Shown: in pieces, positions 16,223 to 31,119 of the stretch
Position numbering within the stretch: position 1 is the first letter of the stretch
How the letters are laid out: every line of letters begins with the position of its first letter
Assembly (NCBI GenBank): GCA_963749705.1
Contig: CAVVNQ010000003.1
Coordinates: forward strand, 128,001-192,000
From: an uncultured Chloroflexia bacterium
GTDB taxonomy: Bacteria > Chloroflexota > Limnocylindria > Limnocylindrales > CSP1-4
DNA: 64,000 bases
Direction: 5' to 3'
The notes under the pieces: model-generated
What the model was told of the DNA's origin: nothing
Database searches by the model: none
Seen by the model: the letters and a program-made list of their open reading frames with translations, nothing else
Position numbers and translations under genes: made by a program

Positions 16223-16327
16223 GCTCGTGCCGTGCTTCGCATGCACCAGCGCGGCACGCCCAGCGCCACCACTTCGACCGGGTGCCGACAAACCCCCTCG
16301 TCGGACCCGCTCGACACCGAGGACCAC

Positions 16328-16684
16328 GTGACCGGGATCTGGTACGTCGTCGGGTTCGCCTTCGCCGGCGTCTCGTTCGTCTTCCTGACGATCGGGCTGG
16401 CGTGGCTGATCTCGCATCGATCGCGAGGTGACCGACACAAGGGCTATCCGTACGAGTCGGGCATCGACACGTACGGCGACACCCATGCCCGCTTCGGCAT
16501 CTCGTTCTACATCTATGCGCTGCTGTTCGTCGCGTTCGACATCGAGGTCGTGTTCATCTACCTGTGGGCGCTGGTCTTCCGGGACCTGCTGCTGGGCGGC
16601 TTCGTGAGCATGCTGATCTTCGTGGGGATCCTGCTCGTCGGGCTCGCGTACGCCTGGCGCAAGGGGGTGCTCACATGGCGATGA
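16328..16684 (+). CDS. nuoA: NADH-quinone oxidoreductase subunit A
   Basis: PYESGI, FYIYALLFVAFDIE, YAWRKGVLTW; GAGG RBS before GTG. Confidence 0.95.
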   Translation: MTGIWYVVGFAFAGVSFVFLTIGLAWLISHRSRGDRHKGYPYESGIDTYGDTHARFGISFYIYALLFVAFDIEVVFIYLWALVFRDLLLGGFVSMLIFVGILLVGLAYAWRKGVLTWR

Positions 16685-17436
16685 CCCCGCCCGGTCCGGA
16701 CGACCGGGAGCTCGGCGCCGGGCCGGACGGCGGAACCGAGACATCCGAGCCCACCGGCCAGCGTCCCTCATCGCTCGTCAGCGCCACGCCGCGCGACCTC
16801 ACCCAGCCGATCGTGGTGCCCAACACGTTGTGGACGTCGACCCGCCCCGAGGCGTACGGCGGCGGGCTGCCGACCGAGGACACGCACCTGCGCGAGCTGG
16901 TGGGATCGCCGCTCGTGACCAGGGACGATGCGCGCTGGGGCGCGCTCGACGTCATCCCCACGAAGGCCGACCTGATCCTGGACCTGATCCGGATGAACAG
17001 CCTGTGGCCGCTCCTGTCCGGGCTCGCGTGCTGCGCCTTCGAGATGATGTCGGCCGCGACGTCCAAGAACGACATGGACCGCTGGGGCATGTTCCCGTTC
17101 CGCGCCTCGCCCCGGCAGGCGGACGTGCTGATCGTTGCCGGGACCCTGACGACCAAGATGGCCGGCCCCCTGATCCGCCTGTGGGAGCAGATGCCGGAGC
17201 CCAAGTGGTGCGTGGCGATGGGCGACTGCACCTGCTCCGGTGGCCGCTACAAGCGCAGCTACTCGACCATCGAGGGGATCGACCGGGTGATGCCGGTCGA
17301 CGTCTACGTGCCCGGTTGCCCGCCCCGGCCGGAAGGCCTGATCTACGGGATGCTCAAGCTCGGGCAGCTGGTCAAGGAGCGCCGCGGGGAATGGCCGGAT
17401 CGCCCGATCGGACCCTCAGTTCCGGAGGACGTCTGA
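16681..17436 (+). CDS. nuoB: NADH-quinone oxidoreductase subunit B (N-terminally extended)
   Basis: GLACCAFEMM, RASPRQAD, MGDC, DVYVPGCPPRPE (N2 ligands); ATGA overlap with nuoA. Confidence 0.96.
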   Translation: MTPPGPDDRELGAGPDGGTETSEPTGQRPSSLVSATPRDLTQPIVVPNTLWTSTRPEAYGGGLPTEDTHLRELVGSPLVTRDDARWGALDVIPTKADLILDLIRMNSLWPLLSGLACCAFEMMSAATSKNDMDRWGMFPFRASPRQADVLIVAGTLTTKMAGPLIRLWEQMPEPKWCVAMGDCTCSGGRYKRSYSTIEGIDRVMPVDVYVPGCPPRPEGLIYGMLKLGQLVKERRGEWPDRPIGPSVPEDV

Positions 17437-17437
17437 C

Positions 17438-17986
17438 GTGGACCGGAGCCTCCGCAAGCGACTCGAGGCGCACTTTGGCGAGCGCCTGACGGGCCCGGTC
17501 CGCCAGCGCCACGACGAGACCGAGATCAGGATCCGCCCGGCCGACGTGACCCAGGTCATGCGAGACCTCCATGACGACCCGGCGTTCGGCTTCGAGATCC
17601 TCGCCGACCTCGCCGGCGTCGACACCGGAACGGACATGCAGGTCGTCTACCACCTGTGGTCGCCGCTCACGCCGGACTGGCTGCGGATCATCGCGGTCGG
17701 CATGCCGCGCGACGACCCGCGCGTCCCGTCCCTCACCGGCCTGTGGCCGGGCGCGGAGTGGATGGAGCGCGAGACGTACGACATGTTCGGGATCATCTTC
17801 GAGGGCAACCGGGACCTGCGGCGCATCTACATGCCACCCGACTACACGAGCTTTCCGCTGCGCAAGGACTTCTACCTTGCCGATGACGCGGCCCGGTCGC
17901 CCGGGGCCGGCGTCCGGCACATGGAGCAGACGCAGGTTCCCAACCAGGCGACGCCGTCGGTCGTCCGCCGGACCGTGAAGGCCTGA
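17438..17986 (+). CDS. nuoC: NADH-quinone oxidoreductase subunit C
   Basis: WPGAEWMERETYDMFGIIFEG, PLRKDF. Confidence 0.95.
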   Translation: MDRSLRKRLEAHFGERLTGPVRQRHDETEIRIRPADVTQVMRDLHDDPAFGFEILADLAGVDTGTDMQVVYHLWSPLTPDWLRIIAVGMPRDDPRVPSLTGLWPGAEWMERETYDMFGIIFEGNRDLRRIYMPPDYTSFPLRKDFYLADDAARSPGAGVRHMEQTQVPNQATPSVVRRTVKA

Positions 17987-17987
17987 C

Positions 17988-19226
17988 ATGACCGCCCCCA
18001 CCACCCCCCGCCAGCACCCGTCCGCGGACGATCCGCGGATCATGCTCGACGACCAGATCGGCGCGTTCGAGACCATTCCGCCGTACCCGCCGCGCACGGA
18101 ACGAGAATCCGAGTTCTTCGCGCTGGGCGACGGCGAGATGTTCCTCAACATGGGACCTCACCACCCGTCCACGCACGGCGTGCTCCGGGTCGTGCTCAAG
18201 ATCAACGGCGAGCAGGTCGTGGACCTGGACCCGGTCCTGGGGTACCTCCACCGCGGCGTCGAGAAGCTGTGCGAGAACTCGGACTACCACCACATCATCA
18301 GCCAGGTCGACCCGCTCGAGTACGTGAGCTCGCTGTTCTGCGAGTGGGCCCCGGTCATGTCGTTCGAGAAGCTCCTGGACGTCCAGGTTCCGCGCCGGGC
18401 CGAGTACATCCGGGTCCTCACCGGCGAGCTCCTGCGCATCTCCAGCCACGTCCTGTTCCAGGGGTTCATGGCCCTGGACCTGGGCGGCCTGACGCCGATC
18501 CTGTACGGCTTCATCGAGCGCGACGAGATCGTGGAGATGCTGGCCGCGGTCACGGGCCAGCGGATGCTGTTCAACTACTTCCGCATCGGCGGGGTCAACG
18601 GCGACCTCAACCACGAGTTCATGTCCCGGCTGGGTGACTGGATGAGCCGGGCGCTGACCCAGGCGGAGGCGAACGCCGGGCTGCTCAACGAGAACGAGAT
18701 CTTCGTCCGCCGGATGCGGGACATCGGCAGGCTCGACCGCGAGACGGCGCTGCGGATGGGCGTCACCGGCCCCAACCTGCGCGCCGCGGGCGTCGCCTAT
18801 GACCTCCGCCGGGCCCACCCGTACTCCGTCTACCCGGAGCTCGAGTTCGACATCCCGACACGTGGCGCCGAGCGCGGTGGCGACAGCCTCGACCGCTACC
18901 TGCTGCGCCTCGACGAGATCAAGCAGAGCCTGCGGATCATCGACCAGTGCCTCCACAACATGCCCGATGGACCGGTCATGGCCAAGCTGCCGCGGCTGCT
19001 GCGGCCGCGCCCGGGCCGGGCCTGGGCCGCGGTCGAGGCCCCCCGCGGCCTGTTCGGGACGTACGCGGTCTCGGATGGCACCGACCAGCCGTTCCGGCTC
19101 AAGATCCACGACCCCTCGTTCGTCAACCTCCAGCTGGTCCCGCTGCTCGTGAAGGGCAACCTGATCGCCGACACGATGGCCGTGATGTCCTCGCTGGATC
19201 CGATCATGGGCGGCGTCGACAAGTGA
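17988..19226 (+). CDS. nuoD: NADH-quinone oxidoreductase subunit D
   Basis: NMGPHHPSTHGVLR, GYLHRGVEK, EAPRG, DPIMGGVDK; no NiFe CxxC motifs. Confidence 0.96.
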   Translation: MTAPTTPRQHPSADDPRIMLDDQIGAFETIPPYPPRTERESEFFALGDGEMFLNMGPHHPSTHGVLRVVLKINGEQVVDLDPVLGYLHRGVEKLCENSDYHHIISQVDPLEYVSSLFCEWAPVMSFEKLLDVQVPRRAEYIRVLTGELLRISSHVLFQGFMALDLGGLTPILYGFIERDEIVEMLAAVTGQRMLFNYFRIGGVNGDLNHEFMSRLGDWMSRALTQAEANAGLLNENEIFVRRMRDIGRLDRETALRMGVTGPNLRAAGVAYDLRRAHPYSVYPELEFDIPTRGAERGGDSLDRYLLRLDEIKQSLRIIDQCLHNMPDGPVMAKLPRLLRPRPGRAWAAVEAPRGLFGTYAVSDGTDQPFRLKIHDPSFVNLQLVPLLVKGNLIADTMAVMSSLDPIMGGVDK

Positions 19227-20575
19227 CCACGCTCAACCGCGCCTGGGGCAACCTGACCGTGACCGGCAAGGTCCTGCTGCCGCTGCTGTTCCTGGTGCTG
19301 GTCGCGGGTCCGATCCTGATCGTGCTGATCGCCCAGTTCGTGGCGCCGTTCCTGGTGGACCTGCTGGGCGCGAACCTGGACATCGTCCGGTTCGTCGTCG
19401 CGGTCACGGGCGTGCTGGTGTTCAGCATCCCGACCGCGTTCATCATCATCTACATGGAGCTCAAGGTCATCGCCCGGATGAACCTGCGGATCGGGCCCAA
19501 CCGGATCGGGCCGGCCGGAGCCGCGATGTCCGTGGTGCACGGGCTCAAGGTCCTCATGAAGGAGGACTTCACGCCGACCGGCGCCGACCACCTGGTGTTC
19601 ACGATCGCACCGGTGATCGTGTTCCTGACCGCCGTCATGACCTTCCTGGTCATCCCGTTCGGGCCCGGGCTCGTCGGGCAGGACTTCAACATCGGCCTGC
19701 TGTACCTGTTCGCGGTCGGTGGCATGAGCGTCGTCGGCCTGCTGATCGCCGGCTGGGCGAGCACCAACAAGTACTCGCTGCTGGGCGGCCTCCGTGCGGC
19801 GGCACAGGTCGTGAGCTACGAGATCCCGCTCACGCTGTCCGTCGTCGGCCTCATCCTGCTGGCGGGCACGATGAGCCTCAACCAGATCGCGGGGCAGCAG
19901 GCGGGCTGGTTCACGGACTGGTTCGTGTTCCGCCAGCCGCTGGGGGCGCTGATCTTCTTCATCGCGGCCACCGCCGAGGCGAACCGAACCCCGTTCGACC
20001 TGTCCGAAGCGGACTCGGAGATCGTGGCCGGCTTCGCGACCGAGTACTCGGGGATGCGGTTCGGGTTCCTTTTCTTCGCCGAGTACGTCAACGTGTTCAT
20101 CATCTCGGCGCTGCTGGTGACCCTGTTCTTCGGCGCCTGGAACGCGCCGTTCCCGTTCCCGCAGGTCGAGGTCGCCCTCGATCCGGGCACGCTGGGGATC
20201 GGCCTGCTGATCCTGATCGCCGCGGCCCCGGTGGTGCTGACCCTGGTGTTCGCCGCGCCGATCTACCTCATGCGCAGCTCCACCCCCGCCTGGCAGGCGC
20301 TGGTGCTCGGCTTCGTGATGTTCAACGTGGTCGCCATCGGCGCCGTGTTCGGCATCGCGTATGCCGGGCTCGACTGGATGGCCGGCCTCGTGTGGTTCAT
20401 GGGCAAGTCGTACGTGTTCGTGTTCGTGTTCGTGTGGATGCGCGCCACGTTCCCGCGCGTGCGCATCGACCAGCTGATGGGGTTCGCCTGGAAGTGGCTG
20501 CTGCCCGCGGCGCTGCTCAACCTGTTCGTGACGGCCGCGGCGATCGTGGTCGTCGACACGCTGAAGGCCGGCTGA
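19223..20575 (+). CDS. nuoH: NADH-quinone oxidoreductase subunit H (enlarged, ~450 aa)
   Basis: RIGPNRIG, KYSLLGGLRAAAQVVSYE, AEANRTPFDLSEADSEIVAG, PRVRIDQLM; GTGA overlap with nuoD. Confidence 0.95.
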   Translation: MTTLNRAWGNLTVTGKVLLPLLFLVLVAGPILIVLIAQFVAPFLVDLLGANLDIVRFVVAVTGVLVFSIPTAFIIIYMELKVIARMNLRIGPNRIGPAGAAMSVVHGLKVLMKEDFTPTGADHLVFTIAPVIVFLTAVMTFLVIPFGPGLVGQDFNIGLLYLFAVGGMSVVGLLIAGWASTNKYSLLGGLRAAAQVVSYEIPLTLSVVGLILLAGTMSLNQIAGQQAGWFTDWFVFRQPLGALIFFIAATAEANRTPFDLSEADSEIVAGFATEYSGMRFGFLFFAEYVNVFIISALLVTLFFGAWNAPFPFPQVEVALDPGTLGIGLLILIAAAPVVLTLVFAAPIYLMRSSTPAWQALVLGFVMFNVVAIGAVFGIAYAGLDWMAGLVWFMGKSYVFVFVFVWMRATFPRVRIDQLMGFAWKWLLPAALLNLFVTAAAIVVVDTLKAG

Positions 20576-20579
20576 GCCG

Positions 20580-21245
20580 ATGAGCATGATCCCCGGCATG
20601 GGCCTGGTCCGCGGCATGAGCCTGACGCTGCGGCGGTTCTTCGCGCCCAAGGCGACCATCCAGTGGCCCGAGGTCCGCGCGGACGTCGCGCCCAAGTTCC
20701 GCGGCCGGCTGCAGCTCCTCTACGACGAGTACGGCACGCTCAAGTGCGAGACCTGCTTCCAGTGCGCCCAGGCCTGCCCGATCGAGTGCATCGACATGGG
20801 TGGCATCGACACCAAGGGCCGCTTCCACGTCCACTGGGGCGCACCCGAGACGTACGACGAGCGGCGCGAGGAATCGGCGATGCGACGCGCCGGGCGACCG
20901 GTTGCCGACGCCGCGTTCACCCGCTTCGAGGGGATCGACCTCGCCCCGCTCGACGCGATCCTCGAGGCGCACGACTACGACCCCAAGGACATGCTCGCGA
21001 TCCTCGAGGAGACACAGGCCGAGTACGGCTACCTGCCGGTCGCGTCGCTCAAGCACATCTCGCGGGTGACGGGCGCCTGGTACGCGATGATCTACGGCAC
21101 CGCGACGTACTACCGGCACCTGCGGTTCGAGCCGCCCGCGGTCGACGACGCGCCGGCGGCCGGCGAGGCGCACCTGGCCGCGGAGCAGGCCTACCGGTCG
21201 TCGCTCGGCGCCTCGCTGGGCTATGGCGACGGGGGCGCACGCTGA
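20580..21245 (+). CDS. Fusion of NuoI N-terminal half and NuoE-like N-terminal helical domain
   Basis: GMSLTLRRFF...TIQWPE...FRGR...CETCFQCAQACP (single ferredoxin motif), then MLAILEETQAEYGYLP...IYGTATYY; no NuoE [2Fe-2S] cysteines. Confidence 0.85.
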   Translation: MSMIPGMGLVRGMSLTLRRFFAPKATIQWPEVRADVAPKFRGRLQLLYDEYGTLKCETCFQCAQACPIECIDMGGIDTKGRFHVHWGAPETYDERREESAMRRAGRPVADAAFTRFEGIDLAPLDAILEAHDYDPKDMLAILEETQAEYGYLPVASLKHISRVTGAWYAMIYGTATYYRHLRFEPPAVDDAPAAGEAHLAAEQAYRSSLGASLGYGDGGAR

Positions 21246-22573
21246 TGGCCCCGTTCCTCACCACGCCGCCGGACTGGCCCCGGATCCTCACCGGTCGCGC
21301 GGACGCGATCTCGGCGGATCCGTCGGACCTCGACGCCGCGGTCGCCGCCGGCGCGTTCGACGGCCTGAGGGTCGCGGTTCGCGACCTGGGCGCCACGGGA
21401 ACGATCGCCACGATCGCCGCGTCCGGACTGCGCGGCCGCGGCGGCGGCGGCTTCCCCACCGCCCGCAAGTGGCGCGCGGCCGCCGGACGTCCCGTGGACC
21501 AGCGATACGTGGTGGCCAACGGCTACGGCGCGGACCCCGCGGTCCGGACCGACGCGACGCTGATGGCCGCCGATCCGTGGGCGGTCATCGAGGGCCTGGT
21601 CATCGCGGCCTTCGCCACCGGCGCGACCGAGGCCATCATCGCGGTCCGCGCCGAGGATGCCGCCCTGATCACGCTGCTCGAGGGCGCCGCCGCGGCGGCG
21701 GAGGAGGCCGGCTTCGCCGGCGATGACGTGCTCGGCTCCCGCCATCGCGTGGGGATCACGATCCGTCCCGTCCAGGGCGCGTACATGCTGGGCGAGGAGA
21801 CGGTGCTGCTCAAGGCGCTCGAGGGACGGCGCGGCCAGCCCGAGCAGCGACCGCCGTACCCCACCGAGCGGGGCCTGTTCGGCAAGCCGACGGTGGTCAA
21901 CAACATCCAGACGCTGGCCGCGGTCCCGTGGATCGTGAAGCAGGGCGGACCGGCGTACGCCGCGATCGGCAGCCCGGCGAGCCCGGGCACCATGCTGGTC
22001 CAGCTCCGCGGCCCCCAGGGGGCGGGCATCGCGGAGGTCCCGCTCGGGACGCCGTTGCGCGACCTGGTCGAGCTCGCCGGCGGGACCGGCAAGCACACCC
22101 TGAAGGCCGTCCTGGTCGGCGGCCCGACGGGCGGGCTGCTGCCACCCGGGATGCTCGACACGCCGTTCGAGTTCGACGCGCTGCGTGCCGCCGGCGCCCA
22201 CATCGGCTCCGGCTCGGTGGTCGTGGCCGACGAGCGCGCCTGCATCGTGGACCTCGCGCGTCTCCTGACCCGGTTCTCCGCCGACGAGGCGTGCGGCAAG
22301 TCGATCCCCTGCCGGATCGGCCTCCGCCGCCTGTACGAGATCGGCGAACGCGTCGCATCCGGGCGGCCGCTGCCGACCGACGCCACGCTCATCGAGGACC
22401 TCGCCCACGACGTGGCCGCCTCCGGCCTGTGCGACCACGAGCGCCTGGCGACCCTGCCGTTCACCAGCGGGATGCGATACTTCCGCTCCGAGATCGATGA
22501 CCACATTCTCCGCAGCTCCTGCCCCGCCGGCGTGTGTCAGCCGATCGCGGTGGCGGCGGGCGCCGCGCACTAG
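21245..22573 (+). CDS. nuoF: NuoF/HydB-like flavoprotein subunit (degenerate)
   Basis: SGLRGRGGGGFPT, GAYMLGEET, PPYP...GKPTVVNN, GGPTGG, CGKSIPCRIG, C-terminal HxxxxxCPAGVC. Confidence 0.85.
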   Translation: MAPFLTTPPDWPRILTGRADAISADPSDLDAAVAAGAFDGLRVAVRDLGATGTIATIAASGLRGRGGGGFPTARKWRAAAGRPVDQRYVVANGYGADPAVRTDATLMAADPWAVIEGLVIAAFATGATEAIIAVRAEDAALITLLEGAAAAAEEAGFAGDDVLGSRHRVGITIRPVQGAYMLGEETVLLKALEGRRGQPEQRPPYPTERGLFGKPTVVNNIQTLAAVPWIVKQGGPAYAAIGSPASPGTMLVQLRGPQGAGIAEVPLGTPLRDLVELAGGTGKHTLKAVLVGGPTGGLLPPGMLDTPFEFDALRAAGAHIGSGSVVVADERACIVDLARLLTRFSADEACGKSIPCRIGLRRLYEIGERVASGRPLPTDATLIEDLAHDVAASGLCDHERLATLPFTSGMRYFRSEIDDHILRSSCPAGVCQPIAVAAGAAH

Positions 22574-22584
22574 GACCCGAGCGA

Positions 22585-25233
22585 ATGGCCGACCTGATCA
22601 CGCGCCCCGACAGCCCCATCGAGCGGCGTGACGCCCGTCCCGATCAGCCCACGCTGCTGGACACCGTCACGGCCCGCGAGGACACGCTCGCCGAGCGCCT
22701 GATCACGACCCAGTCGCCGCAGCGGCCGCAGAGCACGCCGCGGATCCGGATCGAGGTCGATGGCCGGGTCGTCGAGGGGTTCGAGGGCCAGACGATCCTC
22801 GAGGTCTGCCGCGACAACGGGATCGAGATCCCGACCCTGTGCTACGAGCCCAAGCTGCCCGGCTTCGGCGCCTGCCGGATGTGCGTGGTCGAGGTCGAGG
22901 GCGAGGACACGCCGCCCATCTCCTGCTCGCGGGTCGCCGATGCGGGGATGGTGGTCCAGACGCAGACGGACGAGCTGCGGCGCCTGCGCAGGACCAACCT
23001 GGAGCTGATCTTCAGCGACCACAACGCCTACTGCCTGCCACCGTGCCAGAACAAGTGCCCCAGCCACATCGACATCCCGGGCTTCCTCAAGGCCAACGCC
23101 GAAGCCGACTGGCGCGAGTCCGCGCGGATCTTCAAGCGCACGATCCCCTTCCCGAGCGTGCTCGGCCGGGTGTGCCCGGCCCCGTGCGAGGAGCACTGCC
23201 GCCGCGACGAGGTGGACGAGGCGATCGCCATCCGCGACAGCCACCGGTACGCCGGCGACCAGGTGCTGCGGGCGATGCTCGACGAGGACGTCGATCCGCC
23301 GATCCCGTTCGAGCGCCAGGCGCCGTCCGGTCGCCGGGCCGCGGTCATCGGGTCCGGGCCGGCGGGCATGAGCGCCGCCTACTACCTCCTGCTCAACGGC
23401 CACGACGTCACCGTGTTCGAGCGCGATCCCGCGCCGGGCGGCATGCTGCGGTACGGGATCCCGCAGTACCGGCTGCCCAAGGTGGAGGTCCTCGAGGCCG
23501 AGTACGAGTCCGTGTGGCGGCTGGGCGGCAAGCTCGAGTGCAACCAGGCACTGGGCCGCGACTTCACGCTCGACGACCTCCAGAACCAGGGCTACGACGC
23601 GGTCGTCGTCGCGATCGGCTGCTACAACACCAACAAGCTGGGCATCCCCAACGAGGACGCCGACGGCGTCATCGACGGACTGGAGTATCTCCGCACCGCC
23701 ACGCTCGGGCTGCCCTACCCGGGGCATGCCGGGACCCGGGTGGTGGTCATCGGCGGCGGCTTCACGTCGATGGACTGCAGCCGCACCTCGATCCGCCAGG
23801 GCGCCAGCGACGTGACCCTGGTGTACCGCCGCGACATGAAGGACATGCCGGCGTCGGGCGAGGTCCACGAGGCGATCGAGGAAGGCGTCACGGCGATCTT
23901 CCAGGCCGGCCCGACGCGCGTGATCACGGATGACAAGACGGGCAAGGTCACCGGGGTCGAGTTCATCCGGATGGCGCTGGGCGAGCCCGATGCGTCCGGC
24001 CGGCGGCGCCCGGAGCCCGCACCGGGCACCGAGTTCACGGTCCCCTGCGATCGCGTCCTGCTCGCGATCGGGCAGGGTCCGGAGCTGGACTGGATCGGAC
24101 CCGGGTCCGAGGGACCGGTCGCGACGCGACAGCATCGGCTGGCCTCGGATGCGGTGACCTTCGAGACCGCGCGCCCGGGCGTGTTCGGCACCGGCGACGT
24201 GCGGATCGGCGCGGCGACGGTCGTCCAGGCGATCGCGGAGGGCCGCCGCGCGGCGTACGCCGTGGACGCCTACCTCAAGGGCCAGGACCTCGCCGCGATC
24301 CGCACCCGCCAGACCCTCGCCGAGCCGCAGCCCGAGTTCCTCTCGATCGTGCCGTTCACGGGCGAGGTCAAGGAGCCGCGCTACCGCCTCAAGGCGCTCG
24401 AGGCCGAGGCGCGCAACGACAGCTACGTCGAGTACGAGATCCCGTACACCCGGGACGAGGCGGTCGCGGAGTCGACGCGCTGCCTCCAGTGCACCTGCGA
24501 GGCGATCGGGTTCTGCGACCTGCGTCGGCTGGGCATCGAGTACGGGACGACGCTCAGGACGCTCGAGCCCGCGTTCCACCAGGGCGCCGGCTACCGGAGC
24601 GTGACCGAGAACCGGTTCACCGGGCGCAACCACGACTACGTCCGCGACGACAGCCACGCGTTCATCCTGCGCGAGCCCGCCCGGTGCATCGACTGCGGCC
24701 GATGCGCCAACGTGTGCGCCGAGGTCGTCGGTGCCGCGTGCTACGACTTCATGCGGATCGGCTTCGACACACTGGTCACGACGCCGCTCGACATGAGCCT
24801 CAACGACACGCCCTGCGTGTCCTGCGGCCGGTGCGCCGAGACGTGCCCGACCGGAGCCCTGATGCCCAAGCCACGGGTGCTCCAGAAGTACGAGGTCGAC
24901 GAGAGCCGCTGCATCCTGTGCGGGATCTGCGTCGACGCCTGCCCCTACGATGCCGTGCGCGACAGCGACCAGTTCGAGCTCAGCCACACGTCGCGCGTGG
25001 AGCCGATGATCGACCTCCTCGCGCTGGCCGCGGTCGAGCGCGAGACCGAGATGAGCTATATCCGCCGCGAGCGTGACTGGGCGGAGCGAGCCCGGGCCGA
25101 GGGCCGTGTCCTCGACTCGTCCCGGCTGCTCCCCGTCCTGCCCGCCTCGTTTGCGAGCGGCAATGGAAACGGGAACGGCCACGGAAGCGGACCTGCGTCC
25201 GCGTCCGCGACGGCCCATGCCCACGATCACTGA
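22585..25233 (+). CDS. Multidomain Fe-S flavoprotein: NuoG-like [2Fe-2S] + GltD-type FAD/NAD(P)H domain + 2x[4Fe-4S] + NuoI C-terminal half
   Basis: IPTLC...GACRMC...SC; PCQNKCP...GRVCPAPCEEHC; GSGPAG, GGMLRYGIPQYRLP, GGGFTSMD, YRR; CIDCGRCANVC, CVSCGRCAETCP; YEVDESRCILCGICVDACP...FELS. Confidence 0.88.
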   Translation: MADLITRPDSPIERRDARPDQPTLLDTVTAREDTLAERLITTQSPQRPQSTPRIRIEVDGRVVEGFEGQTILEVCRDNGIEIPTLCYEPKLPGFGACRMCVVEVEGEDTPPISCSRVADAGMVVQTQTDELRRLRRTNLELIFSDHNAYCLPPCQNKCPSHIDIPGFLKANAEADWRESARIFKRTIPFPSVLGRVCPAPCEEHCRRDEVDEAIAIRDSHRYAGDQVLRAMLDEDVDPPIPFERQAPSGRRAAVIGSGPAGMSAAYYLLLNGHDVTVFERDPAPGGMLRYGIPQYRLPKVEVLEAEYESVWRLGGKLECNQALGRDFTLDDLQNQGYDAVVVAIGCYNTNKLGIPNEDADGVIDGLEYLRTATLGLPYPGHAGTRVVVIGGGFTSMDCSRTSIRQGASDVTLVYRRDMKDMPASGEVHEAIEEGVTAIFQAGPTRVITDDKTGKVTGVEFIRMALGEPDASGRRRPEPAPGTEFTVPCDRVLLAIGQGPELDWIGPGSEGPVATRQHRLASDAVTFETARPGVFGTGDVRIGAATVVQAIAEGRRAAYAVDAYLKGQDLAAIRTRQTLAEPQPEFLSIVPFTGEVKEPRYRLKALEAEARNDSYVEYEIPYTRDEAVAESTRCLQCTCEAIGFCDLRRLGIEYGTTLRTLEPAFHQGAGYRSVTENRFTGRNHDYVRDDSHAFILREPARCIDCGRCANVCAEVVGAACYDFMRIGFDTLVTTPLDMSLNDTPCVSCGRCAETCPTGALMPKPRVLQKYEVDESRCILCGICVDACPYDAVRDSDQFELSHTSRVEPMIDLLALAAVERETEMSYIRRERDWAERARAEGRVLDSSRLLPVLPASFASGNGNGNGHGSGPASASATAHAHDH

Positions 25234-25242
25234 GAGGGACGC

Positions 25243-25779
25243 GTGACGCTGCCGGATACGATCCCGCTGATCGGGATCGGGTGGGATGACCTGCTGTTCC
25301 TGGCCCTGGCCGGGGTGATGGTCGGTGCCGCGCTGCTGGTCGTCACGATGCGCGACATCATCCGCTGCGGCCTGGCCATGATCGTGTGCTTCGGCGCCCT
25401 GGCGGGGCTGTACGTGCTTGCCGGGGCCCCGTTCGTCGCCGCCGCGCAGGTGCTGGTGTACATCGGCGCGATCAGCGTCCTGGTCCTGTTCGCGATCATG
25501 CTCACGCAGACGAAGGCGGGCCCGAGGGCGCTGGTGTTCCAGACGCAGGCGGTCCCCGCGGCGATCGCGGCGGTGATCCTCGCGATCCTGATCGCGGTCA
25601 CGGTCACGGCGACCGACTGGCCCCAGTCGGCGGGACGGATCTGGACGCGAACCGCCGACGTCGCGGCGACCCTGTTCTCCTCGTTCGTGCTCCCGTTCGA
25701 GGTGGTGAGCGTGCTGCTGCTCGCGGCCGTGATCGGCGGGGTGTTCATCGCCAAGCGGGAGCGGGGAGGGCCTGACTGA
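25243..25779 (+). CDS. nuoJ: NADH-quinone oxidoreductase subunit J
   Basis: AAQVLVYIGAISVLVLFAIML, LPFEVVSVLLLAAVIG. Confidence 0.95.
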   Translation: MTLPDTIPLIGIGWDDLLFLALAGVMVGAALLVVTMRDIIRCGLAMIVCFGALAGLYVLAGAPFVAAAQVLVYIGAISVLVLFAIMLTQTKAGPRALVFQTQAVPAAIAAVILAILIAVTVTATDWPQSAGRIWTRTADVAATLFSSFVLPFEVVSVLLLAAVIGGVFIAKRERGGPD

Positions 25780-26111
25780 TGCTGGCCGCCCTGCACAACC
25801 TGTCCCAGACCCTGGATGCGTATCTCGTGCTCGCGGGGCTGCTGTTCGCGATCGGTGCGTTCGGCTTCCTGGCCCGGCGCAACGCGATCAGCATGCTGAT
25901 GTCGATCGAGCTGATGCTCAACGGCGTCAACCTCGCGATCATCGCGTTCGGCGCGTTCAGCCCCTCGCTCAAGACCAGCGCCTCGGTGATCGCGCTGATC
26001 GTGATGGCCGCCGCCGCCGCCGAGGCGACCGTCGGCCTCGCCATCGTGATCGCGATCTACCGCAACCGGAAGACGCCGCTCGTCGACGAGTACGACGACA
26101 TGCGGCAGTAG
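25779..26111 (+). CDS. nuoK: NADH-quinone oxidoreductase subunit K
   Basis: RRNAISMLMSIELMLN, AAAEATVGLAI. Confidence 0.96.
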   Translation: MLAALHNLSQTLDAYLVLAGLLFAIGAFGFLARRNAISMLMSIELMLNGVNLAIIAFGAFSPSLKTSASVIALIVMAAAAAEATVGLAIVIAIYRNRKTPLVDEYDDMRQ

Positions 26112-26121
26112 GCGCCGATCG

Positions 26122-28110
26122 ATGTACGAGACCCTGATCCCGCTGATCGTGCTGCTGCCGATCGCCGGCTTCGCGTTCACGGCGCTGTTCGGTCGCCGGC
26201 TCCAGCTCACATTCGGACGCTGGGCGTCGGAGATCGTGCCGGTGGGCGGCGTGATCGCGGTGTGGGTGATCGCGATGATCGTGGTCGCCGGGGCGCTCGG
26301 CCACAACGAGGCGTTCGGCGAGCACGGCCTCGACGTCAAGCTCTGGACGTGGATCCCGGCCGGGGCGTTCAGCGTGGACCTCGGCTTCCACGTGGACACG
26401 CTGACGGCCGCGCTGCTGATCGTGGTCACCACGATCGGCATGCTCGTCCACGTGTACTCGATCGGGTACATGGCGCACGACGACGGGACGTGGCGCTTCT
26501 TCGCCTACCTCAACCTGTTCATGTTCTCGATGCTGCTGCTGGTGCTCGCCAACAGCTGGCTGCTGGTGTTCGCGGGCTGGGAGCTGGTCGGGCTGTGCAG
26601 CTACCTGCTGATCGGCTTCTGGTACCGCAAGCGCTCGGCATCGCTGGCGGCCAAGAAGGCGTTCATCGTCAACCGCGTGGGCGACGTCGGGTTCGCGCTG
26701 GGGATCATGGCGATCTTCGTCAACACCGGCACGCTCAACATCCAGGACTCGCTGGCGAAGCTGATCGAGGCGCCGGCCGGGACGCTGACGATCCCGCTCT
26801 CGATCATCGCCCTGCTCGTGTTCGCGGGCGCGATGGGGAAGAGCGCGCAGTTCCCGCTCCACGTGTGGCTCCCGGACGCGATGGAAGGTCCGACCCCCGT
26901 CTCGGCCCTGATCCACGCGGCGACCATGGTCAACGCCGGCGTCTACCTCATCGCCCGCGCCAACCCGCTGTTCGCCCACGCCCAGGACGCGATGGTGGTG
27001 GTGGCCGCGATCGGCATCTTCACGGCGATCCTGGCCGCCTCGATCGCGTTCACCCAGACCGACATCAAGCGCGTGCTCGCGTACTCCACGCTGAGCCAGC
27101 TGGGGTACATGTTCGCGGCCCTCGGCGTCGGCGCGTTCGTGCCCGCGATCTTCCACCTGATGACCCACGGGTTCTTCAAGGGCCTGCTGTTCCTCGGTTC
27201 GGGCTCGGTGATCCACGCCGTCCACGAGGAGCAGGACATGAACCGCATGGGCGCCCTGTGGCGGAAGATCCCGATCACGCACTGGACGATGTTCGTGGCC
27301 ACGTTCGCCATCGCGGGCATCCCGCCGCTGGCCGGGTTCTTCTCCAAGGACGAGATCCTGGGCGAGTCGTTCAAGTTCGGCTTCACCTGGGTGTGGCTGA
27401 TCGGCGTCGTCGTCGCGGTCATGACGGCGTTCTACATGTGGCGCCTGATGGGCAAGACGTTCTACGGCGAGAGCCGCGTCGACCCGCACGTCGAGCCCAA
27501 AATCCACGAGTCCGCGTGGCAGATGACGCTGCCCCTGGTCCTGCTCGCGATCCCGGCCGCGCTGCTGGGCATTGCGCTGACGTGGGGCGGGCCGCCGCTG
27601 TTCTCCGGCACGGGCCTGCTGGCCGGCTGGCTGGAGCCCGTGTTCGCCGACTCGGAGCACCTGCTCCACGGCAACCCGGAGGCGTTCGCGCTGGCGGGCG
27701 TCGACGGGATCCTGATCCTGATCAGCGTGGCCGCGGCCACGCTCGGCCTGGTCGCCGGCCTGTGGCTGTTCGGTGCCTTCCGCGCCCGTGGCAACCGCGA
27801 GCTGGTGGACCGGATCGCCGGCGCCAACGGCGCCACGCGGTTCCTGTATCGGGCCACCCTCAACAAGTGGTGGTTCGACGAGCTCAACGACCTGCTGTTC
27901 ATCCGGATCGGCGGGCGGGTGGCGGCGGCCATGTGGTGGTTCGACCGGACGATCGTCGATGGCACAGTCAACGGCGTCGGCGCGCTCACGCGTGACGCGG
28001 GCGGGGGCCTGCGCCGGATCCAGACCGGACACGTCCAGAACTACGCGCTGGGGATCGCGATCGGCCTGCTCGTGATGGCAGGCTCGTTCCTCGTGATCGT
28101 GAGCCGCTGA
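26122..28110 (+). CDS. nuoL: NADH-quinone oxidoreductase subunit L
   Basis: GKSAQFPLHVWLPDAMEGPTPVSALIHAATMV, HGFFKGLLFLGSG, QTGHVQNY. Confidence 0.97.
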   Translation: MYETLIPLIVLLPIAGFAFTALFGRRLQLTFGRWASEIVPVGGVIAVWVIAMIVVAGALGHNEAFGEHGLDVKLWTWIPAGAFSVDLGFHVDTLTAALLIVVTTIGMLVHVYSIGYMAHDDGTWRFFAYLNLFMFSMLLLVLANSWLLVFAGWELVGLCSYLLIGFWYRKRSASLAAKKAFIVNRVGDVGFALGIMAIFVNTGTLNIQDSLAKLIEAPAGTLTIPLSIIALLVFAGAMGKSAQFPLHVWLPDAMEGPTPVSALIHAATMVNAGVYLIARANPLFAHAQDAMVVVAAIGIFTAILAASIAFTQTDIKRVLAYSTLSQLGYMFAALGVGAFVPAIFHLMTHGFFKGLLFLGSGSVIHAVHEEQDMNRMGALWRKIPITHWTMFVATFAIAGIPPLAGFFSKDEILGESFKFGFTWVWLIGVVVAVMTAFYMWRLMGKTFYGESRVDPHVEPKIHESAWQMTLPLVLLAIPAALLGIALTWGGPPLFSGTGLLAGWLEPVFADSEHLLHGNPEAFALAGVDGILILISVAAATLGLVAGLWLFGAFRARGNRELVDRIAGANGATRFLYRATLNKWWFDELNDLLFIRIGGRVAAAMWWFDRTIVDGTVNGVGALTRDAGGGLRRIQTGHVQNYALGIAIGLLVMAGSFLVIVSR

Positions 28111-29645
28111 TGAACGTCTCGGACTTCCCGATCGTCTCGCTGATCACGTTCCTGCCCCTCGCCGGCGCGATCGTGGTCGCGTTCCTGCCGGGCAGCCGCC
28201 CGAACCTCGCCCGGTACACCGCCCTCGGGTTCGCGCTGGCCGCGTGGGTCGCCTCGCTGATCCTCCTGGTCGGCTTCACGCCCGGGCGTCCCGGGTTCGA
28301 GTACATCGACCAGCAGGCGTGGGTGCCCCTGTTCGGGATCCAGTACAAGGTGGGCGTCGACGGGCTGTCGCTGGCGATGGTCGTGCTGACGACGACGCTG
28401 ACCTGGATCAGCATCCTTGCCTCGTTCCGGCCGATCCAGAACCGGGTCAAGGAGTACATGGTCTCGTTCCTGGTCCTCGAGGTCGGCATGACCGGGGTGT
28501 TCGTGTCGCTCGACCTGTTCCTGTTCTACGTGTTCTGGGAGATCGTCCTCGTCCCGATGTACCTGATCATCGGGATCTGGGGCGGCGCGAACCGGATCTA
28601 CGCGACGATCAAGTTCGTCCTGTACACGCTGGTCGGCTCGCTGCTGATGCTGGTCGCGATCCTGGCGACCGCGTTCACGTACCAGGCCGCGACGGGCAGC
28701 TGGGCCGGGGCGTTCGACCTCACCGTGCTGCGCGGCTTCCCGTTCGACTCGACGTTCCAGATGCTCGCGTTCGGTGCGTTCTTCCTCGCGTTCGCGATCA
28801 AGGTCCCGATGTTCCCGTTCCACACCTGGCTGCCCGACGCGCACGTCGAGGCGCCGACCGCCGGGTCGGTGATCCTGGCCGGCGTCCTGCTCAAGTTGGG
28901 CGGCTACGGGTTCATCCGGTTCGCGCTGCCGTTGTATCCGGATGCGGCCCAGACCTTTGCCCCCGCGATCATCGTGCTCAGCCTGATCGCGATCATCTAC
29001 GGCGCCATCGTGGCGCTGGTCCAGCCCGACCTCAAGAAGCTGGTCGCCTACTCCTCGGTCAGCCACATGGGCTTCGTGACCCTCGGCATCTTCGTGTTCC
29101 AGCAGCAGGCGCTCCAGGGCGCGATCCTCCAGATGGTCAACCACGGGCTGATCACCGGGGCCCTGTTCCTGCTGGTGGGCGTGATCTACGAACGGACCCA
29201 CGACCGCACGATCGCCAAGATGGGCGGCCTCGGCGCGCCGGTACCCGTCTATGCGGCCGCGTTCGGGTTCTTCGTGTTCGCGTCAGTCGGGCTGCCGGGC
29301 CTGTCGGGCTTCGTCGGGGAGTTCCTGACCCTGGTCGGGACGTTCTCCGTGTACCCGGTGGCAGCCGCCGTGGCGACGTTCGTGATGATCCTGGCCGCCG
29401 GCTACCTGCTGTGGATGGTCCAGCGGGTGGCGTTCGGCGAGCTGTCCGAGTTCCTCAAAGGTCTGGGCGACCACCTGACCGACATGAAGCCGGTGGAGGC
29501 GCTGACCCTCGTGCCGCTGGGCGCACTGGTCGTCGTGTTCGGGCTGTTCCCCGGGCTGGTCCTGGATCTTGTGTCCGGGTCGGTGACCTCGACGCTCAAC
29601 GCCGTGGCGCAGGGCGCGCCGATCGCGTTCGGGCTGTGGCGGTAG
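28110..29645 (+). CDS. nuoM: NADH-quinone oxidoreductase subunit M
   Basis: KVPMFPFHTWLPDAHVEAPTAGSVILAGVLLK, AYSSVSHMG. Confidence 0.97.
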   Translation: MNVSDFPIVSLITFLPLAGAIVVAFLPGSRPNLARYTALGFALAAWVASLILLVGFTPGRPGFEYIDQQAWVPLFGIQYKVGVDGLSLAMVVLTTTLTWISILASFRPIQNRVKEYMVSFLVLEVGMTGVFVSLDLFLFYVFWEIVLVPMYLIIGIWGGANRIYATIKFVLYTLVGSLLMLVAILATAFTYQAATGSWAGAFDLTVLRGFPFDSTFQMLAFGAFFLAFAIKVPMFPFHTWLPDAHVEAPTAGSVILAGVLLKLGGYGFIRFALPLYPDAAQTFAPAIIVLSLIAIIYGAIVALVQPDLKKLVAYSSVSHMGFVTLGIFVFQQQALQGAILQMVNHGLITGALFLLVGVIYERTHDRTIAKMGGLGAPVPVYAAAFGFFVFASVGLPGLSGFVGEFLTLVGTFSVYPVAAAVATFVMILAAGYLLWMVQRVAFGELSEFLKGLGDHLTDMKPVEALTLVPLGALVVVFGLFPGLVLDLVSGSVTSTLNAVAQGAPIAFGLWR

Positions 29646-29655
29646 GAGGACGATC

Positions 29656-31119
29656 GTGAGCTTCTCCGACGCCGCGACCGTCGCGCCGTTCATCGCCGCC
29701 ATCCTGGTCGCCGGCGCGATCCTCGTGGTCGACTTCATCGCCCCCGGACGCAAGGGCCCGGCCCTGGCGGCCGCGTTCATCGGGCTGGCGCTCGTGGCCG
29801 CGCTGGCGGCGGTGGTGGGGCAGGACGAGCGCACGGCATTCCAGGGGGCCTACGTCGTCGATCCCCTGACGACCTTCCTGGACATCCTGTTCGTCGCGAT
29901 CGTCGCGCTGACCATCGCGTTCGCGCCCGACTACCTGGAGGAACGCGGCCTCCCGGTGCCCGAGTTCGCTGCCGTGCTCGTGTTCGCGATGGCCGGCGCG
30001 ATGCTGATCTCGGCCTCCGCGGACCTGCTGGTCCTGTTCCTGGGACTCGAGCTGATGGTCCTGCCGGGCTACCTGCTCGCCGGCTACCACAAGTCGGACG
30101 GCTACTCAACCGAGGGCGCGATCAAGTACTTCCTGCTGGGCTCGTTCTCGAGCGCGATCTTCCTGTTCGGCCTCGTGTTCGTGTGGGGCACGACCGGCAC
30201 CACCAGCATCGCGGGCGTGGGCGCCGCGCTGACGCTGATCTCGGGTGGTGGCGCGGCCCTGTCTCCGGGGCTGGGCATGGGTCTCGCGTTCCTGACCACG
30301 GGCGTCGCGTTCAAGATCGCGGCGGTCCCGTTCCACTACTGGACACCCGACGCGTACCAGGGCTCACCCACGCCGGTGACCGGCTGGCTGTCGGTCGGCC
30401 CGAAGGTGGGCGCCTTCGCCCTGATCATCCGGCTGTTCGCGTCGGCGCTGGGACCGCTCGCCGCCGACTGGAACATCGTGATCATGGTCCTCGCGGCGAC
30501 CACGATGACCCTGGGCAACCTCGTCGCCCTGACCCAGGACAACGTCAAGCGCATGCTCGCCTACTCCTCGATCGCGCATACCGGCTACATGCTGGTGGGC
30601 TTTGCGGCGTTCGGCGCCGGGCAGATCCAGGGTCTCGAGGGGCTCCTGTACTACGGCGCGGCCTACGCGTTCATGAACCTGGGCGCGTTCGCGGTCATCG
30701 CCGCCGTTCAGAAGCGGCTCGGCGTGAGCAGCAACCTGTCGACCTTCGCCGGCCTGGTCCGCCGGGAGCCGGCGTTGGCGATCCTGATGACGCTGTTCCT
30801 GCTGTCGCTCACCGGGATCCCCCCGACGGCCGGGTTCTTCGGCAAGTTCTACGTCATCCTGGCGGCCGTCCAGGCCGGGGGCTGGCTGAACGTCCTGGCC
30901 GTCCTGGCCATGCTCAACGCCGCTGCTGCCGCCTTCTACTACCTGCGCGTGGTCGTGTACATGTACATGCGCGATCCCGCCGGCGAGGTGCCGGTCGTGC
31001 CGCATGGCCGTCTCGTGTGGACCGGGCTCGCCGTGACGTCGGTGCTCACGATCGTGCTGGGGATGTTCCCGGGCGTCCTGCTCGAGATCGTCGGCAGCGC
31101 CGCCCGCGCGGTCGGATAG
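29656..31119 (+). CDS. nuoN: NADH-quinone oxidoreductase subunit N
   Basis: EGAIKYFLLG, FKIAAVPFHYWTPDAYQGSP, KRMLAYSSIAHTGY, GIPPTAGFFGK. Confidence 0.96.
   Translation: MSFSDAATVAPFIAAILVAGAILVVDFIAPGRKGPALAAAFIGLALVAALAAVVGQDERTAFQGAYVVDPLTTFLDILFVAIVALTIAFAPDYLEERGLPVPEFAAVLVFAMAGAMLISASADLLVLFLGLELMVLPGYLLAGYHKSDGYSTEGAIKYFLLGSFSSAIFLFGLVFVWGTTGTTSIAGVGAALTLISGGGAALSPGLGMGLAFLTTGVAFKIAAVPFHYWTPDAYQGSPTPVTGWLSVGPKVGAFALIIRLFASALGPLAADWNIVIMVLAATTMTLGNLVALTQDNVKRMLAYSSIAHTGYMLVGFAAFGAGQIQGLEGLLYYGAAYAFMNLGAFAVIAAVQKRLGVSSNLSTFAGLVRREPALAILMTLFLLSLTGIPPTAGFFGKFYVILAAVQAGGWLNVLAVLAMLNAAAAAFYYLRVVVYMYMRDPAGEVPVVPHGRLVWTGLAVTSVLTIVLGMFPGVLLEIVGSAARAVG

Follow-up and report, generated by a model that had tools for sequence, protein, structure and literature searches.

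A transhydrogenase-like gene trio within a divided nuoI of a Chloroflexota complex I operon, a candidate dual-entry NAD(P)H input arm

The stretch of DNA analysed here (the window: 64,000 nucleotides of contig CAVVNQ010000003.1, assembly GCA_963749705.1, from an uncultured Chloroflexota bacterium of the class Limnocylindria) carries an operon for respiratory complex I (nuo genes). Within it, the reading frame at 22585-25233, hereafter G', had been described in an initial annotation as a NuoG modified by a GltD-type flavin domain. Judged from sequence comparison, G' is the last member of a trio resembling nfnC-B-A, the genes of a transhydrogenase of the bifurcating Nfn/Stn (Bfu) family, and this trio sits inside nuoI of an operon otherwise of the 11-subunit type. 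The two halves of NuoI are fused to the first and the last proteins of the trio.

Our preferred interpretation, which we hold as probable but with considerable room for doubt, is that the Nfn/Stn-type module serves as the input arm of complex I, the whole forming a dual-entry, non-bifurcating, proton-pumping NAD(P)H:quinone oxidoreductase. Such a pump would probably use reduced nicotinamide adenine dinucleotide phosphate (NADPH) as well as its unphosphorylated counterpart (NADH). In the wider scenario an 11-subunit complex I gained an NAD(P)H arm a second, independent time, through an nfnCBA-type operon placed in nuoI, with clusters A2-A4 as the wire and with two points of entry, to become the sole complex I of Limnocylindria, a class abundant in soil and fresh water, and a second one in Ktedonobacteria; here the chances seem to us evenly balanced.

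Architecture of G' and its family

The features of the trio are the following (positions in the window).

20580-21245, plus strand: fusion gene of 221 residues directly after nuoH, the N-terminal half of NuoI followed by a NuoE/BfuC-like helical stub (PDB phmmer, NCBIfam, alignment A1)
20601-20825, plus strand: N-terminal half of NuoI, residues 8-82 of the fusion, with an amphipathic N-terminus and C56xxC59xxC62xxxC66P (PDB, TIGR01971, canonical NuoI)
20925-21140, plus strand: NuoE-like stub, residues about 116-187, helical N-domain only (Pfam 2Fe-2S_thioredx, 9bov_C)
21245-22573, plus strand: NuoF/BfuB-like subunit of 442 residues for flavin mononucleotide (FMN), its start overlapping the preceding stop by 1 nucleotide (Pfam Complex1_51K and NADH_4Fe-4S)
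22585-25233, plus strand: G', NfnA/StnC-like subunit of 882 residues, with an ATG start, a stop at 25231-25233 and the C-terminal half of NuoI as its C-terminal end
22741-22968, plus strand: [2Fe-2S] domain of G', residues 53-128 (Pfam Fer2_4, E 7e-21)
23032-24294, plus strand: GltD/NfnB-like domain of G', residues 150-570 (Pfam Fer4_20 and Pyr_redox_2; PDB matches to NfnI, GltD and DPD)
24481-24516, plus strand: second half of the His-ligated (N5/A3-type) cluster motif, C633xxC636xC638xxxxxC644, aligning with the motif of 9bov_A and 9n5u_A
24664-24861, plus strand: 2x[4Fe-4S] ferredoxin-like domain, C701/704/707/711 and C744/747/750/754 (Pfam Fer4_Nqo3, sub-threshold, and Fer4_7)
24874-25005, plus strand: C-terminal half of NuoI, residues 764-807 of G', with C776xxC779xxC782xxxC786P and a FEL motif (TIGR01971, E 6e-12)

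The window has a G+C content of about 71%, and the genes of the operon are tightly packed on the plus strand. For G' the start at 22585 (MADLI) was preferred to a longer GTG start at 22534, because homologues start at MADLI. All the motifs quoted in the initial annotation (SDHNAYC, PPCQNKCP, GRVCPAPCE, GSGPAG, YGIPQYRLP, GGGFTSMD and VYRR) were recovered in the translation, and its central observation, a GltD-type flavin domain inserted in the His-cluster motif, was borne out by Pfam, by alignments to PDB chains and by an alignment of eight G' sequences at 45-90% identity (alignment A2). The inserted part begins with the iron-sulphur domain of GltD and DPD (Fer4_20, residues 150-227, E 9e-17) and continues with Pyr_redox_2 (residues 252-553, E 1e-27). 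It has what characterizes GltD, NfnB(L) and DPD, namely two [4Fe-4S] motifs (C150/154/158 and C197/201/205, plus H220), two Rossmann GxG motifs (GxGxxG at 256-261 for flavin adenine dinucleotide, FAD, and GGG at 390-392 for NAD(P)H) and YRR (Y414-R415-R416); it aligned to 4ylf_B, 5jca_L and 2vdc_G with E values of 1e-75 to 1e-64 in phmmer. The first half of the His-ligated motif is H146xxxC150, followed by an interruption of 480 residues before the second half. Pfam NADH-G_4Fe-4S_3 (PF10588) matched residues 135-151 only, at profile positions 1-17 of 40 and below threshold, as is expected of an N5-type motif broken after His-x3-Cys. Pfam also placed a 4Fe-4S dicluster at residues 744-790.

Every predicted ligand was invariant in the eight sequences of alignment A2: C86, C97, C100 and C114 of the [2Fe-2S] domain; H146, C150, C154, C158, C197, C201, C205 and H220; C633, C636, C638 and C644; and the three quartets C701, C704, C707, C711, then C744, C747, C750, C754 and last C776, C779, C782, C786. 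The same holds for GxGxxG 256-261, GGG 390-392 and Y414-R415-R416. No molybdopterin or Fe-hydrogenase catalytic family was found among the Pfam matches listed for G' (25 of 29 families), in line with the earlier remark that neither kind of domain follows the flavin domain. About 50 residues precede the [2Fe-2S] domain of G' as an N-terminal extension (window 22585-22740), which is present in families f1 and f2 of the class only; the protein ends about 95 residues past its last cluster motif, in a low-complexity tail rich in Gly, Asn and His (window 25050-25230) whose last residues are HAHDH.

In sequence, G' is an A subunit of the Bfu family with the NfnA/StnC architecture, a likeness far beyond chance (E values down to about 1e-160 against PDB). 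The best match was 9bov_A (1178 residues, E 9.5e-160) in a single alignment over residues 54-786 of G', which run continuously along residues 4-699 of 9bov_A (E 5e-159) and have the same interrupted His-cluster motif. Next came NfnA 9n5u_A (E 2e-142) and 8oh5_C (1172 residues, E 2e-139). From chain lengths and the residue numbers given in the papers, rather than from PDB titles, we take 8oh5 to be the Stn enzyme of Sporomusa ovata and 9bov to be NfnABC of Caldicellulosiruptor. After GltD, the large subunit of NfnI and DPD, the list continued with HydA, FdhA and NuoG, which matched the termini of G' only. An identity as NuoG, HydA or FdhA was rejected: the Pfam matches listed for G' include no molybdopterin or H-cluster domain, and the NuoG model TIGR01973 gave 90 bits against a cut-off of 470, over its N-terminal 98 positions only. 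Canonical NuoG has a molybdopterin-like C-terminal domain, an unbroken HxxxCxxCxxxxxC N5 motif and no flavin, and G' differs on each count. The inserted GltD domain, first taken for a new modification of NuoG, is thus the known architecture of the A subunit in Bfu-type transhydrogenases.

StnC comprises a [2Fe-2S] domain (1-101), a GltD-like domain (102-565), NuoG-type clusters and an inactive FdhF-like domain (683-1172); this last, pterin-less domain carries one or more further clusters and mediates tetramerisation, and NADPH was bound in the Stn structure (PMC10482914). The FdhF-like domain is absent from G', where the PDB alignments end at about residue 700 of 1178. With StnABC of S. ovata, NfnABC of Caldicellulosiruptor saccharolyticus and archaeal Nfn-Bfu, the trio shares the three-gene order C-B-A; in the A subunit, an N-terminal [2Fe-2S] cluster, a GltD-like FAD/NADPH domain with two [4Fe-4S] clusters inside the His-cluster motif and then 2x[4Fe-4S]; and in the B subunit, an FMN site and one putative [4Fe-4S] cluster. 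It differs from these enzymes in every subunit: the A protein has the C-terminal half of NuoI where the FdhF-like domain sits, and a His for K170 of StnC; the B protein is without the N- and C-terminal iron-sulphur domains, hence without a ferredoxin site, and its B1 motif is one Cys short; the C protein is without a [2Fe-2S] cluster and is fused to the N-terminal half of NuoI. Moreover, the genes are embedded among nuo genes, and in Chloroflexota of aerobic type rather than in anaerobes.

The divided NuoI, its operon and its occurrence

The two pieces of NuoI are complementary. In the fusion gene, residues 9-73 aligned to residues 23-87 of 7ar7_I (TYKY, E 3e-11), whereas the last ~120 residues of G' contain the C-terminal half, aligning to 8qby_I residues 93-144 and 9f5x_G residues 161-209 (E ~1e-11) and to 7ar7_I residues 99-145. 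On the model TIGR01971, fusion residues 12-77 correspond to positions 1-65 of 121 and the C-terminal part of G' to positions 71-114. Likewise, residues 5-67 of a canonical Chloroflexota NuoI aligned to the fusion (E 1e-13) and its residues 80-121 to G' (E 3e-8). Within G' the C-terminal half starts about 20 residues past the A4-type motif. The two pieces, with one CxxCxxCxxxCP motif each, scored 47 and 45 bits against a TIGR01971 cut-off of 113, which fits a split member of the family and not a standard NuoI in one polypeptide; all three proteins of the trio in fact scored below every NCBIfam cut-off.

The remaining nuo genes surround the trio.

16232-16684, plus strand: nuoA (Pfam Oxidored_q4, E 2.5e-31)
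16564-17436, plus strand: nuoB, its true start probably later in the frame (Pfam Oxidored_q6, E 5e-26)
17438-17986, plus strand: nuoC (Pfam Complex1_30kDa, E 8e-39)
17988-19226, plus strand: nuoD, which reads as a member of the 49-kDa family (Pfam Complex1_49kDa, E 1e-83)
19223-20575, plus strand: nuoH (Pfam NADHdh, E 4e-106)
25243-25779, plus strand: nuoJ (Pfam Oxidored_q3)
25779-26111, plus strand: nuoK (Pfam Oxidored_q2)
26122-28110, plus strand: nuoL (Pfam Proton_antipo_M and Proton_antipo_N)
28110-29645, plus strand: nuoM (Pfam Proton_antipo_M)
29656-31119, plus strand: nuoN (Pfam Proton_antipo_M)

The gene order is thus A-B-C-D-H-[I_N::E']-F-[G'::I_C]-J-K-L-M-N, where I_N and I_C are the halves of NuoI and E' the NuoE-like stub; subunits A, B, C, D, H, J, K, L, M and N of the core were assigned by Pfam, and NuoB has the Cys residues of an N2-type cluster (CC 156/157, C222 and C252). 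Once the module is removed and the halves of NuoI are rejoined, this is identical to the order of the 11-subunit complex I (NDH-1, nuoABCDHIJKLMN). The initial annotation had connected G' to complex I; it had missed that nuoI is split and that its halves belong to the first and last proteins of the module. Enzymes of 11 subunits are without an NAD(P)H module and take electrons from ferredoxin or unknown donors, whereas here a flavoprotein module is covalently tied to NuoI. With canonical 14-subunit complex I the operon has in common an FMN subunit, a [2Fe-2S] cluster, a His-ligated cluster, the N6a/N6b/N2 chain and the membrane arm; in the canonical enzyme, however, NuoEFG is encoded between nuoD and nuoH, NuoE binds cluster N1a and NuoI is a single polypeptide. 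Among other groups, 11-subunit complex I has been recorded in Chloroflexi (PMC3144371).

We then asked how widely the arrangement occurs, in a sample of 201 genomes of the class Limnocylindria, 126 of them of high quality. The fusion gene was found in 192 (124 of the high-quality genomes), family by family in 59/60 (f1), 7/7 (f2), 59/66 (f3), 65/66 (f4) and 1/1 (f5); G' was found at E <=1e-100 in 188 (~94%; 125 of the high-quality genomes), with matches reaching at least residue 805. These tallies include genomes flagged as unpublished (for the fusion gene G096, G087, G159, G123, G091, G067, G151 and G112; for G', G159, G123, G096, G087, G112, G091, G106 and G067). An assembly or frameshift artefact was rejected, as the arrangement recurs in 188-192 of the 201 genomes. 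Open frames of about 700 residues were considered as NuoI'-E'-F fusions and also rejected; in L020 such a frame is a high-GC frame overlapping nuoH in another frame.

By source name, close homologues belong to Candidatus Limnocylindria or Limnocylindrales, and among neighbours in the atlas those scoring at least 0.94 were labelled Chloroflexota, the next (0.77) being ordinary NuoI. In a phylum sample of 401 genomes, 28 genomes outside the class matched the fusion at E <=1e-12, of which 10 covered both halves and 18 the NuoI part only. A scan of species genomes with a non-Limnocylindria member gave 78 loci: 76 were from Ktedonobacterales, 'Chloroflexia' metagenome-assembled genomes (MAGs) and five cultured Dictyobacter species, and the remaining two were weak partial matches, in other phyla, to NuoE/NuoI of the ordinary kind. 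Among 1.84 billion representatives, a profile search returned 7133 matches at E <=1e-3 and 64 at <=1e-30. Two homologues of G' at 85-86% identity, P0035 and P0095, are labelled as MAGs of 'Anaerolinea sp.' and 'Vitreimonas sp.'; contamination or a wrong label is the probable explanation for these bins, since close homologues are otherwise confined to Limnocylindria. In databases the proteins of the module are named 'FAD-dependent oxidoreductase', 'formate dehydrogenase major subunit', 'ferredoxin' or 'subunit E', generic names because of which genome surveys would score the carriers as without NuoI and NuoG.

Several observations bear on whether the module belongs to complex I. In the source genome (G000; 3.6 Mb in 22 contigs, 88% complete), NuoD and NuoH are each encoded at a single locus, in the operon of the module, and this is the only complex I found there. 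A canonical NuoI query returned no intact NuoI in any of five genomes searched (G000 and one each of families f1-f4), only the two halves and generic dicluster domains. In G001, of family f3 (L014/L023), the genes are divided between two contigs, one with B-D-[I_N::E']-F-G' and the other with A-C-H-J-K-L-M-N, and the genome has a single NuoB and a single NuoH. Other Chloroflexota, of Ktedonobacterales type (G472, G317, G261 and G521; L015-L017, L021, L022 and L024), have a cluster of four genes, B-[I_N::E']-F-G', and, next to a canonical A-N operon, a separate A-C-D-H cluster without B and I (followed by the gene for valyl-tRNA synthetase in G521); genes J-N for the second complex were not located in these genomes. 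The short module clusters include nuoB in 4/4 loci (together with nuoD in f3), and the matching A-C-(D)-H clusters are without B and I. Because these gene sets complement each other, we argue that the products of the module assemble with the Nuo core.

G' was present at the expected distance in three Dictyobacter genomes, together with one or two extra tandem copies, as in D. alpinus (B-[I_N::E']-F-G'-G'). The tandem loci (G556:C1:877460-882478, G557:C1:1114983-1122642 and G558:C1:1047923-1054217) hold 2-3 full-length copies, 72-74% identical to G' of L016 and each including the region of the C-terminal half of NuoI; they may represent alternative input subunits.

A structure prediction that combined both NuoI halves and two 4Fe-4S clusters scored 0.33 (runs 0.33, 0.25 and 0.34), against 0.01 for the best control, with a partner predicted local distance difference test (pLDDT) of at least 52 and at least 82% of contacts agreeing between runs. 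In calibration, the mark that it passed was reached by 58 of 80 solved complexes and by 2 of 110 mismatches; at scores of <=0.60, 7 of the 80 solved complexes passed, as did both passing mismatches. The prediction lends weak support to a pairing of the halves, and since the fold of NuoI has been solved, likeness to it may account for the pass.

In one sediment metatranscriptome, RNA-library contigs were identical to the window at 21203-21391 (spanning the junction at 21245), 24112-24280 and 25930-26134, and another, with 5 differences, covered 22266-22622 and with it the junction of F and G' (22573/22585). These contigs hint at transcription of the module; DNA carry-over is possible, and the contigs show neither transcript ends nor levels. 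Two metatranscriptome runs, X17 and X19, bear different study codes and have near-identical counts and contigs, probably being one data set; their contigs are from relatives at about 90%.

Electron entry and its alternatives

The initial annotation had raised the possibility of a second flavin site, and this was found, as FMN motifs, in the adjoining NuoF-like gene. In PDB its product scored highest with NfnB (345 bits), then with HydB, StnB and NiFe-HydB (338-300), FdsB (264) and NuoF of complex I (at most 251). Its 442 residues align to residues 126-537 of 602 in NfnB and end there, so that the N-terminal (B5) and C-terminal 2x[4Fe-4S] (B3/B4) domains of BfuB are absent; by Pfam, it has no Fer4 domain. 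In an alignment of eight NuoF-like sequences, from four lineages with the full operon and four others (alignment A3), the FMN loop (GRGGxG), N92, D97 and GEET were invariant. The cluster motif reads C350-G-K-S353-I-P-C356...C396, with Ser353 in place of the second Cys of N3/B1. The four full-operon lineages have CGK(S/T/A)xPC (Thr or Ala in f1b, f2 and f4; L020, L019 and L018), whereas L014-L017 (f3 and Ktedonobacterales) have CGxCxPC. A Glu at C396+3 occurred only where the second Cys is lost (4/4 versus 0/4), which suggests a swap of ligand or a cluster with changed properties. The Bfu-type C-terminal motif CPxGxC is kept in 7/8 sequences, being lost in L019.

The NuoE-like stub matched positions 2-63 of 145 of Pfam 2Fe-2S_thioredx and residues 18-88 of 9bov_C (E 1e-10). 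The [2Fe-2S] ligand set of NuoE was incomplete in all eight sequences of alignment A1, either by loss of the second Cys pair or by truncation of the domain. In f4 (L018:8665-9513) and f2 (L019:8982-9803) the fusion is longer, at 273-282 residues, with a thioredoxin-like remnant and the first Cys pair (CxCxxC) only. The variants look like different stages in the decay of an N1a/C1 site.

In small maximum-likelihood trees of NuoF (11 rows) and NuoD (9 rows), with no Bfu references among the rows, the split-type NuoF sequences formed two supported groups (88/93 and 95/93) apart from canonical NuoF and the NuoE-F fusion of the same genome (90/99). Deep relations were unresolved in these trees, from which we drew no origin. 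That NuoF paralogue is a NuoE-NuoF fusion in a frame of 750 residues (G000:C3:565641-568981, L006), flanked by two-component regulators and followed by a NuoG-like protein of 445 residues with Fer2_4, Fer4_Nqo3 and Molybdop_Fe4S4 and no molybdopterin domain. Another NuoF-like protein of the genome, of 604 residues, is encoded next to ApbE (G000:C8:250191-252005, L007).

If the module is the input arm of complex I, the two halves of NuoI would together restore its 2x[4Fe-4S] fold (N6a/N6b) on NuoB/D/H, and by this the input module would be tethered to the quinone (Q) module. Electrons of NADPH would pass from FAD over clusters A7 and A6 to the His-ligated A3 and on to A2, and those of NADH from FMN over B1 and the [2Fe-2S] cluster A1 to the same junction; from A2 they would run over A4, N6a/N6b of the split NuoI and N2 to quinone, with proton pumping by NuoH, A, J, K, L, M and N. 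The enzyme would be reversible in principle. In NfnABC the path is FAD-A7-A6-A3-A2-A1-B1-FMN, with A2-A4-A5 as a dead-end branch (PMC11829005), a dead end also in StnC (PMC10482914). There, the minimal site of bifurcation is B1-FMN-C1, and B3/B4 lead to ferredoxin (PMC11829005); C1, B3/B4 and B5 being absent here, bifurcation is very unlikely. For entry of NADPH via FAD, as first proposed, homology and motifs make this the best-supported reading, its function being deduced from them.

A number of points weigh against this interpretation. Each of its functional steps is drawn from sequence, from which the direction, NADPH oxidation or NADP+ reduction, is undecidable. A preference for NADPH over NADH at the FAD site would follow from the YRR motif, which NADPH-binding relatives also have and whose Arg pair, behind the second beta-strand, is the sign of 2'-phosphate, hence of NADPH. 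In canonical complex I it is the His-ligated N5, not an A4-type cluster, that contacts NuoI, so the proposed route from A4 to N6a would be a new geometry. A direct wire from FAD to FMN would allow uncoupled transhydrogenation from NADPH to NAD+, and no gate is evident in the sequences. PntB is encoded in the source genome, so the organism need not depend on the module to connect the two nucleotide pools. Ser353 in place of the second Cys could impair the FMN branch, in precisely those lineages that have this complex I only. The genome has a second NuoE-F fusion and a short NuoG-like gene elsewhere, and the pairing of the NuoI halves is weakly supported by prediction. Finally, K170 of StnC, reported as a strictly conserved ligand of the FAD-proximal cluster (PMC10482914), corresponds to His220 of G', present in 8/8 relatives (position 170 of 9bov_A, counted by hand on the alignment).

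The same assembly might run backwards, the proton-motive force driving electrons from quinol to NADP+ (and NAD+) to supply NADPH for biosynthesis or CO2 fixation, a mode which the initial annotation had also proposed. Complex I is reversible in principle, Nfn/Stn enzymes physiologically run towards NADPH, and reverse operation of Nuo for NADPH supply has been discussed (PMC4758237). We nevertheless regard it as improbable that this is the main role: as the sole complex I found in the genome, the enzyme is needed for forward oxidation of NADH/NADPH in respiration, PntB is available for NADPH formation driven by the proton-motive force, and the sequence bears no sign of direction.

Only one of the two flavin sites might be functional, the FMN branch being a relic (an NADPH-only enzyme) or else the GltD domain (an NADH-only enzyme on an inherited scaffold). 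The missing second Cys of the NuoF-like [4Fe-4S] motif, found in 4/4 full-operon lineages examined, would agree with the former, as would the vestigial NuoE partner, and the exchange of the Lys ligand of the FAD-proximal cluster for His with the latter. Yet the nucleotide and flavin motifs of both sites are invariant across 34-90% identity (alignments A2 and A3), and the Glu that co-varies with the lost Cys (4/4 versus 0/4) could substitute for it; a single working site thus seems to us rather unlikely.

A soluble Stn/Nfn-like transhydrogenase or another oxidoreductase, encoded in the nuo operon and working outside complex I, is very unlikely. It would be in keeping with the weak complex prediction and with Ktedonobacterales and f3, where the module does not share one operon with the membrane subunits. 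However, its end proteins carry both halves of NuoI, including the NuoI-specific N-terminus, no other NuoI was found in the five genomes searched and only one NuoB in G001, and the short clusters keep nuoB in 4/4 loci while their partner A-C-(D)-H clusters are without B and I. Least credible of all is a bifurcating or confurcating complex of the 'Nuo-Bfu' type coupling NAD(P)H and ferredoxin to quinone reduction, as predicted with BfuABC for NuoEFG in Geobacter, Deferribacteres, Planctomycetes and Nitrospirae (PMC9304861): the NuoF-like protein has its nearest relatives among Bfu B subunits and keeps the C-terminal CPxGxC, but the C1 [2Fe-2S] cluster and the B3/B4 ferredoxin-binding domain, part of or needed beside the minimal B1-FMN-C1 site, are absent, and B1 itself is one Cys short.

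Precedents, meaning and neighbouring genes

In the open-access and bioRxiv literature searched, supplements apart, we found no account of a complex I with an Nfn-type module, of a NuoI in two pieces or of this enzyme in Limnocylindria or Ktedonobacteria. The complex I found in nature is regarded as specific for NADH or as receiving its electrons from ferredoxin or F420H2, and an NADPH-oxidising complex I of E. coli has been engineered. What appears undescribed is thus not the GltD domain within a His-cluster motif, which was already known, but the C-terminal half of NuoI in place of the FdhF-like domain together with the split NuoI, and the role of the assembly as the sole complex I found.

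The initial annotation had counted ferredoxin, flavodoxin and F420H2 as the known alternative inputs; the range in print is wider, and includes the predicted Nuo-Bfu (PMC9304861) and a GltD-like flavoprotein in mbx-like operons (PMC4758237). Nuo-Bfu (Schut et al. 2022, PMC9304861) likewise has a Bfu-type module for NuoEFG in a complex I operon. As described there, its bifurcating BfuBC core is complete, its A subunit is NuoG-like and has no GltD, its genes are in the usual place of E-F-G and its NuoI is intact, whereas the module here is of Nfn type, stripped of the parts for bifurcation and inserted in nuoI. That survey selected BfuB homologues with a ferredoxin-type domain (PMC9304861), which the NuoF-like protein of the module is without. 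The mbx-like operons (Degli Esposti 2015, PMC4758237) likewise put a GltD-type NAD(P)(H) site on a complex-I-like membrane enzyme. In those operons, an Mbx/Mrp-type complex is said to have the flavoprotein as its substitute for NuoI (PMC4758237), whereas here NuoI is kept, if split, the GltD domain lies within a multi-cluster subunit resembling NfnA, and the operon is a bona fide Nuo operon.

Limnocylindria and Ktedonobacteria are abundant in soils. If our interpretation is right, an energy-conserving route from NADPH to quinone would alter the models of their growth yield and redox balance. Nature would then also offer a case of modular rewiring, in which a soluble bifurcating transhydrogenase lost its bifurcation parts and was plugged into a proton pump via a split core subunit, and the origin of the N-module of complex I, a question of long standing, would become directly testable. 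The cultured Dictyobacter species, D. alpinus, D. aurantiacus and D. kobayashii among them, carry the module and bring such tests to the bench.

Three genes flank the operon.

14872-16167, plus strand: protein of the Methyltransf_28 family (E 3.5e-46), directly upstream of nuoA
31234-32901, plus strand: trehalose-6-phosphate synthase-like gene (Glyco_transf_20), immediately 3' of nuoN
32898-33878, minus strand: trehalose phosphatase gene, near nuoN and after the synthase-like gene

Methyltransf_28 is the MidA/NDUFAF7 family, known from mitochondria for an assembly factor that methylates arginine in the homologue of NuoD; the placement of this gene beside an unusual nuo operon may be meaningful.

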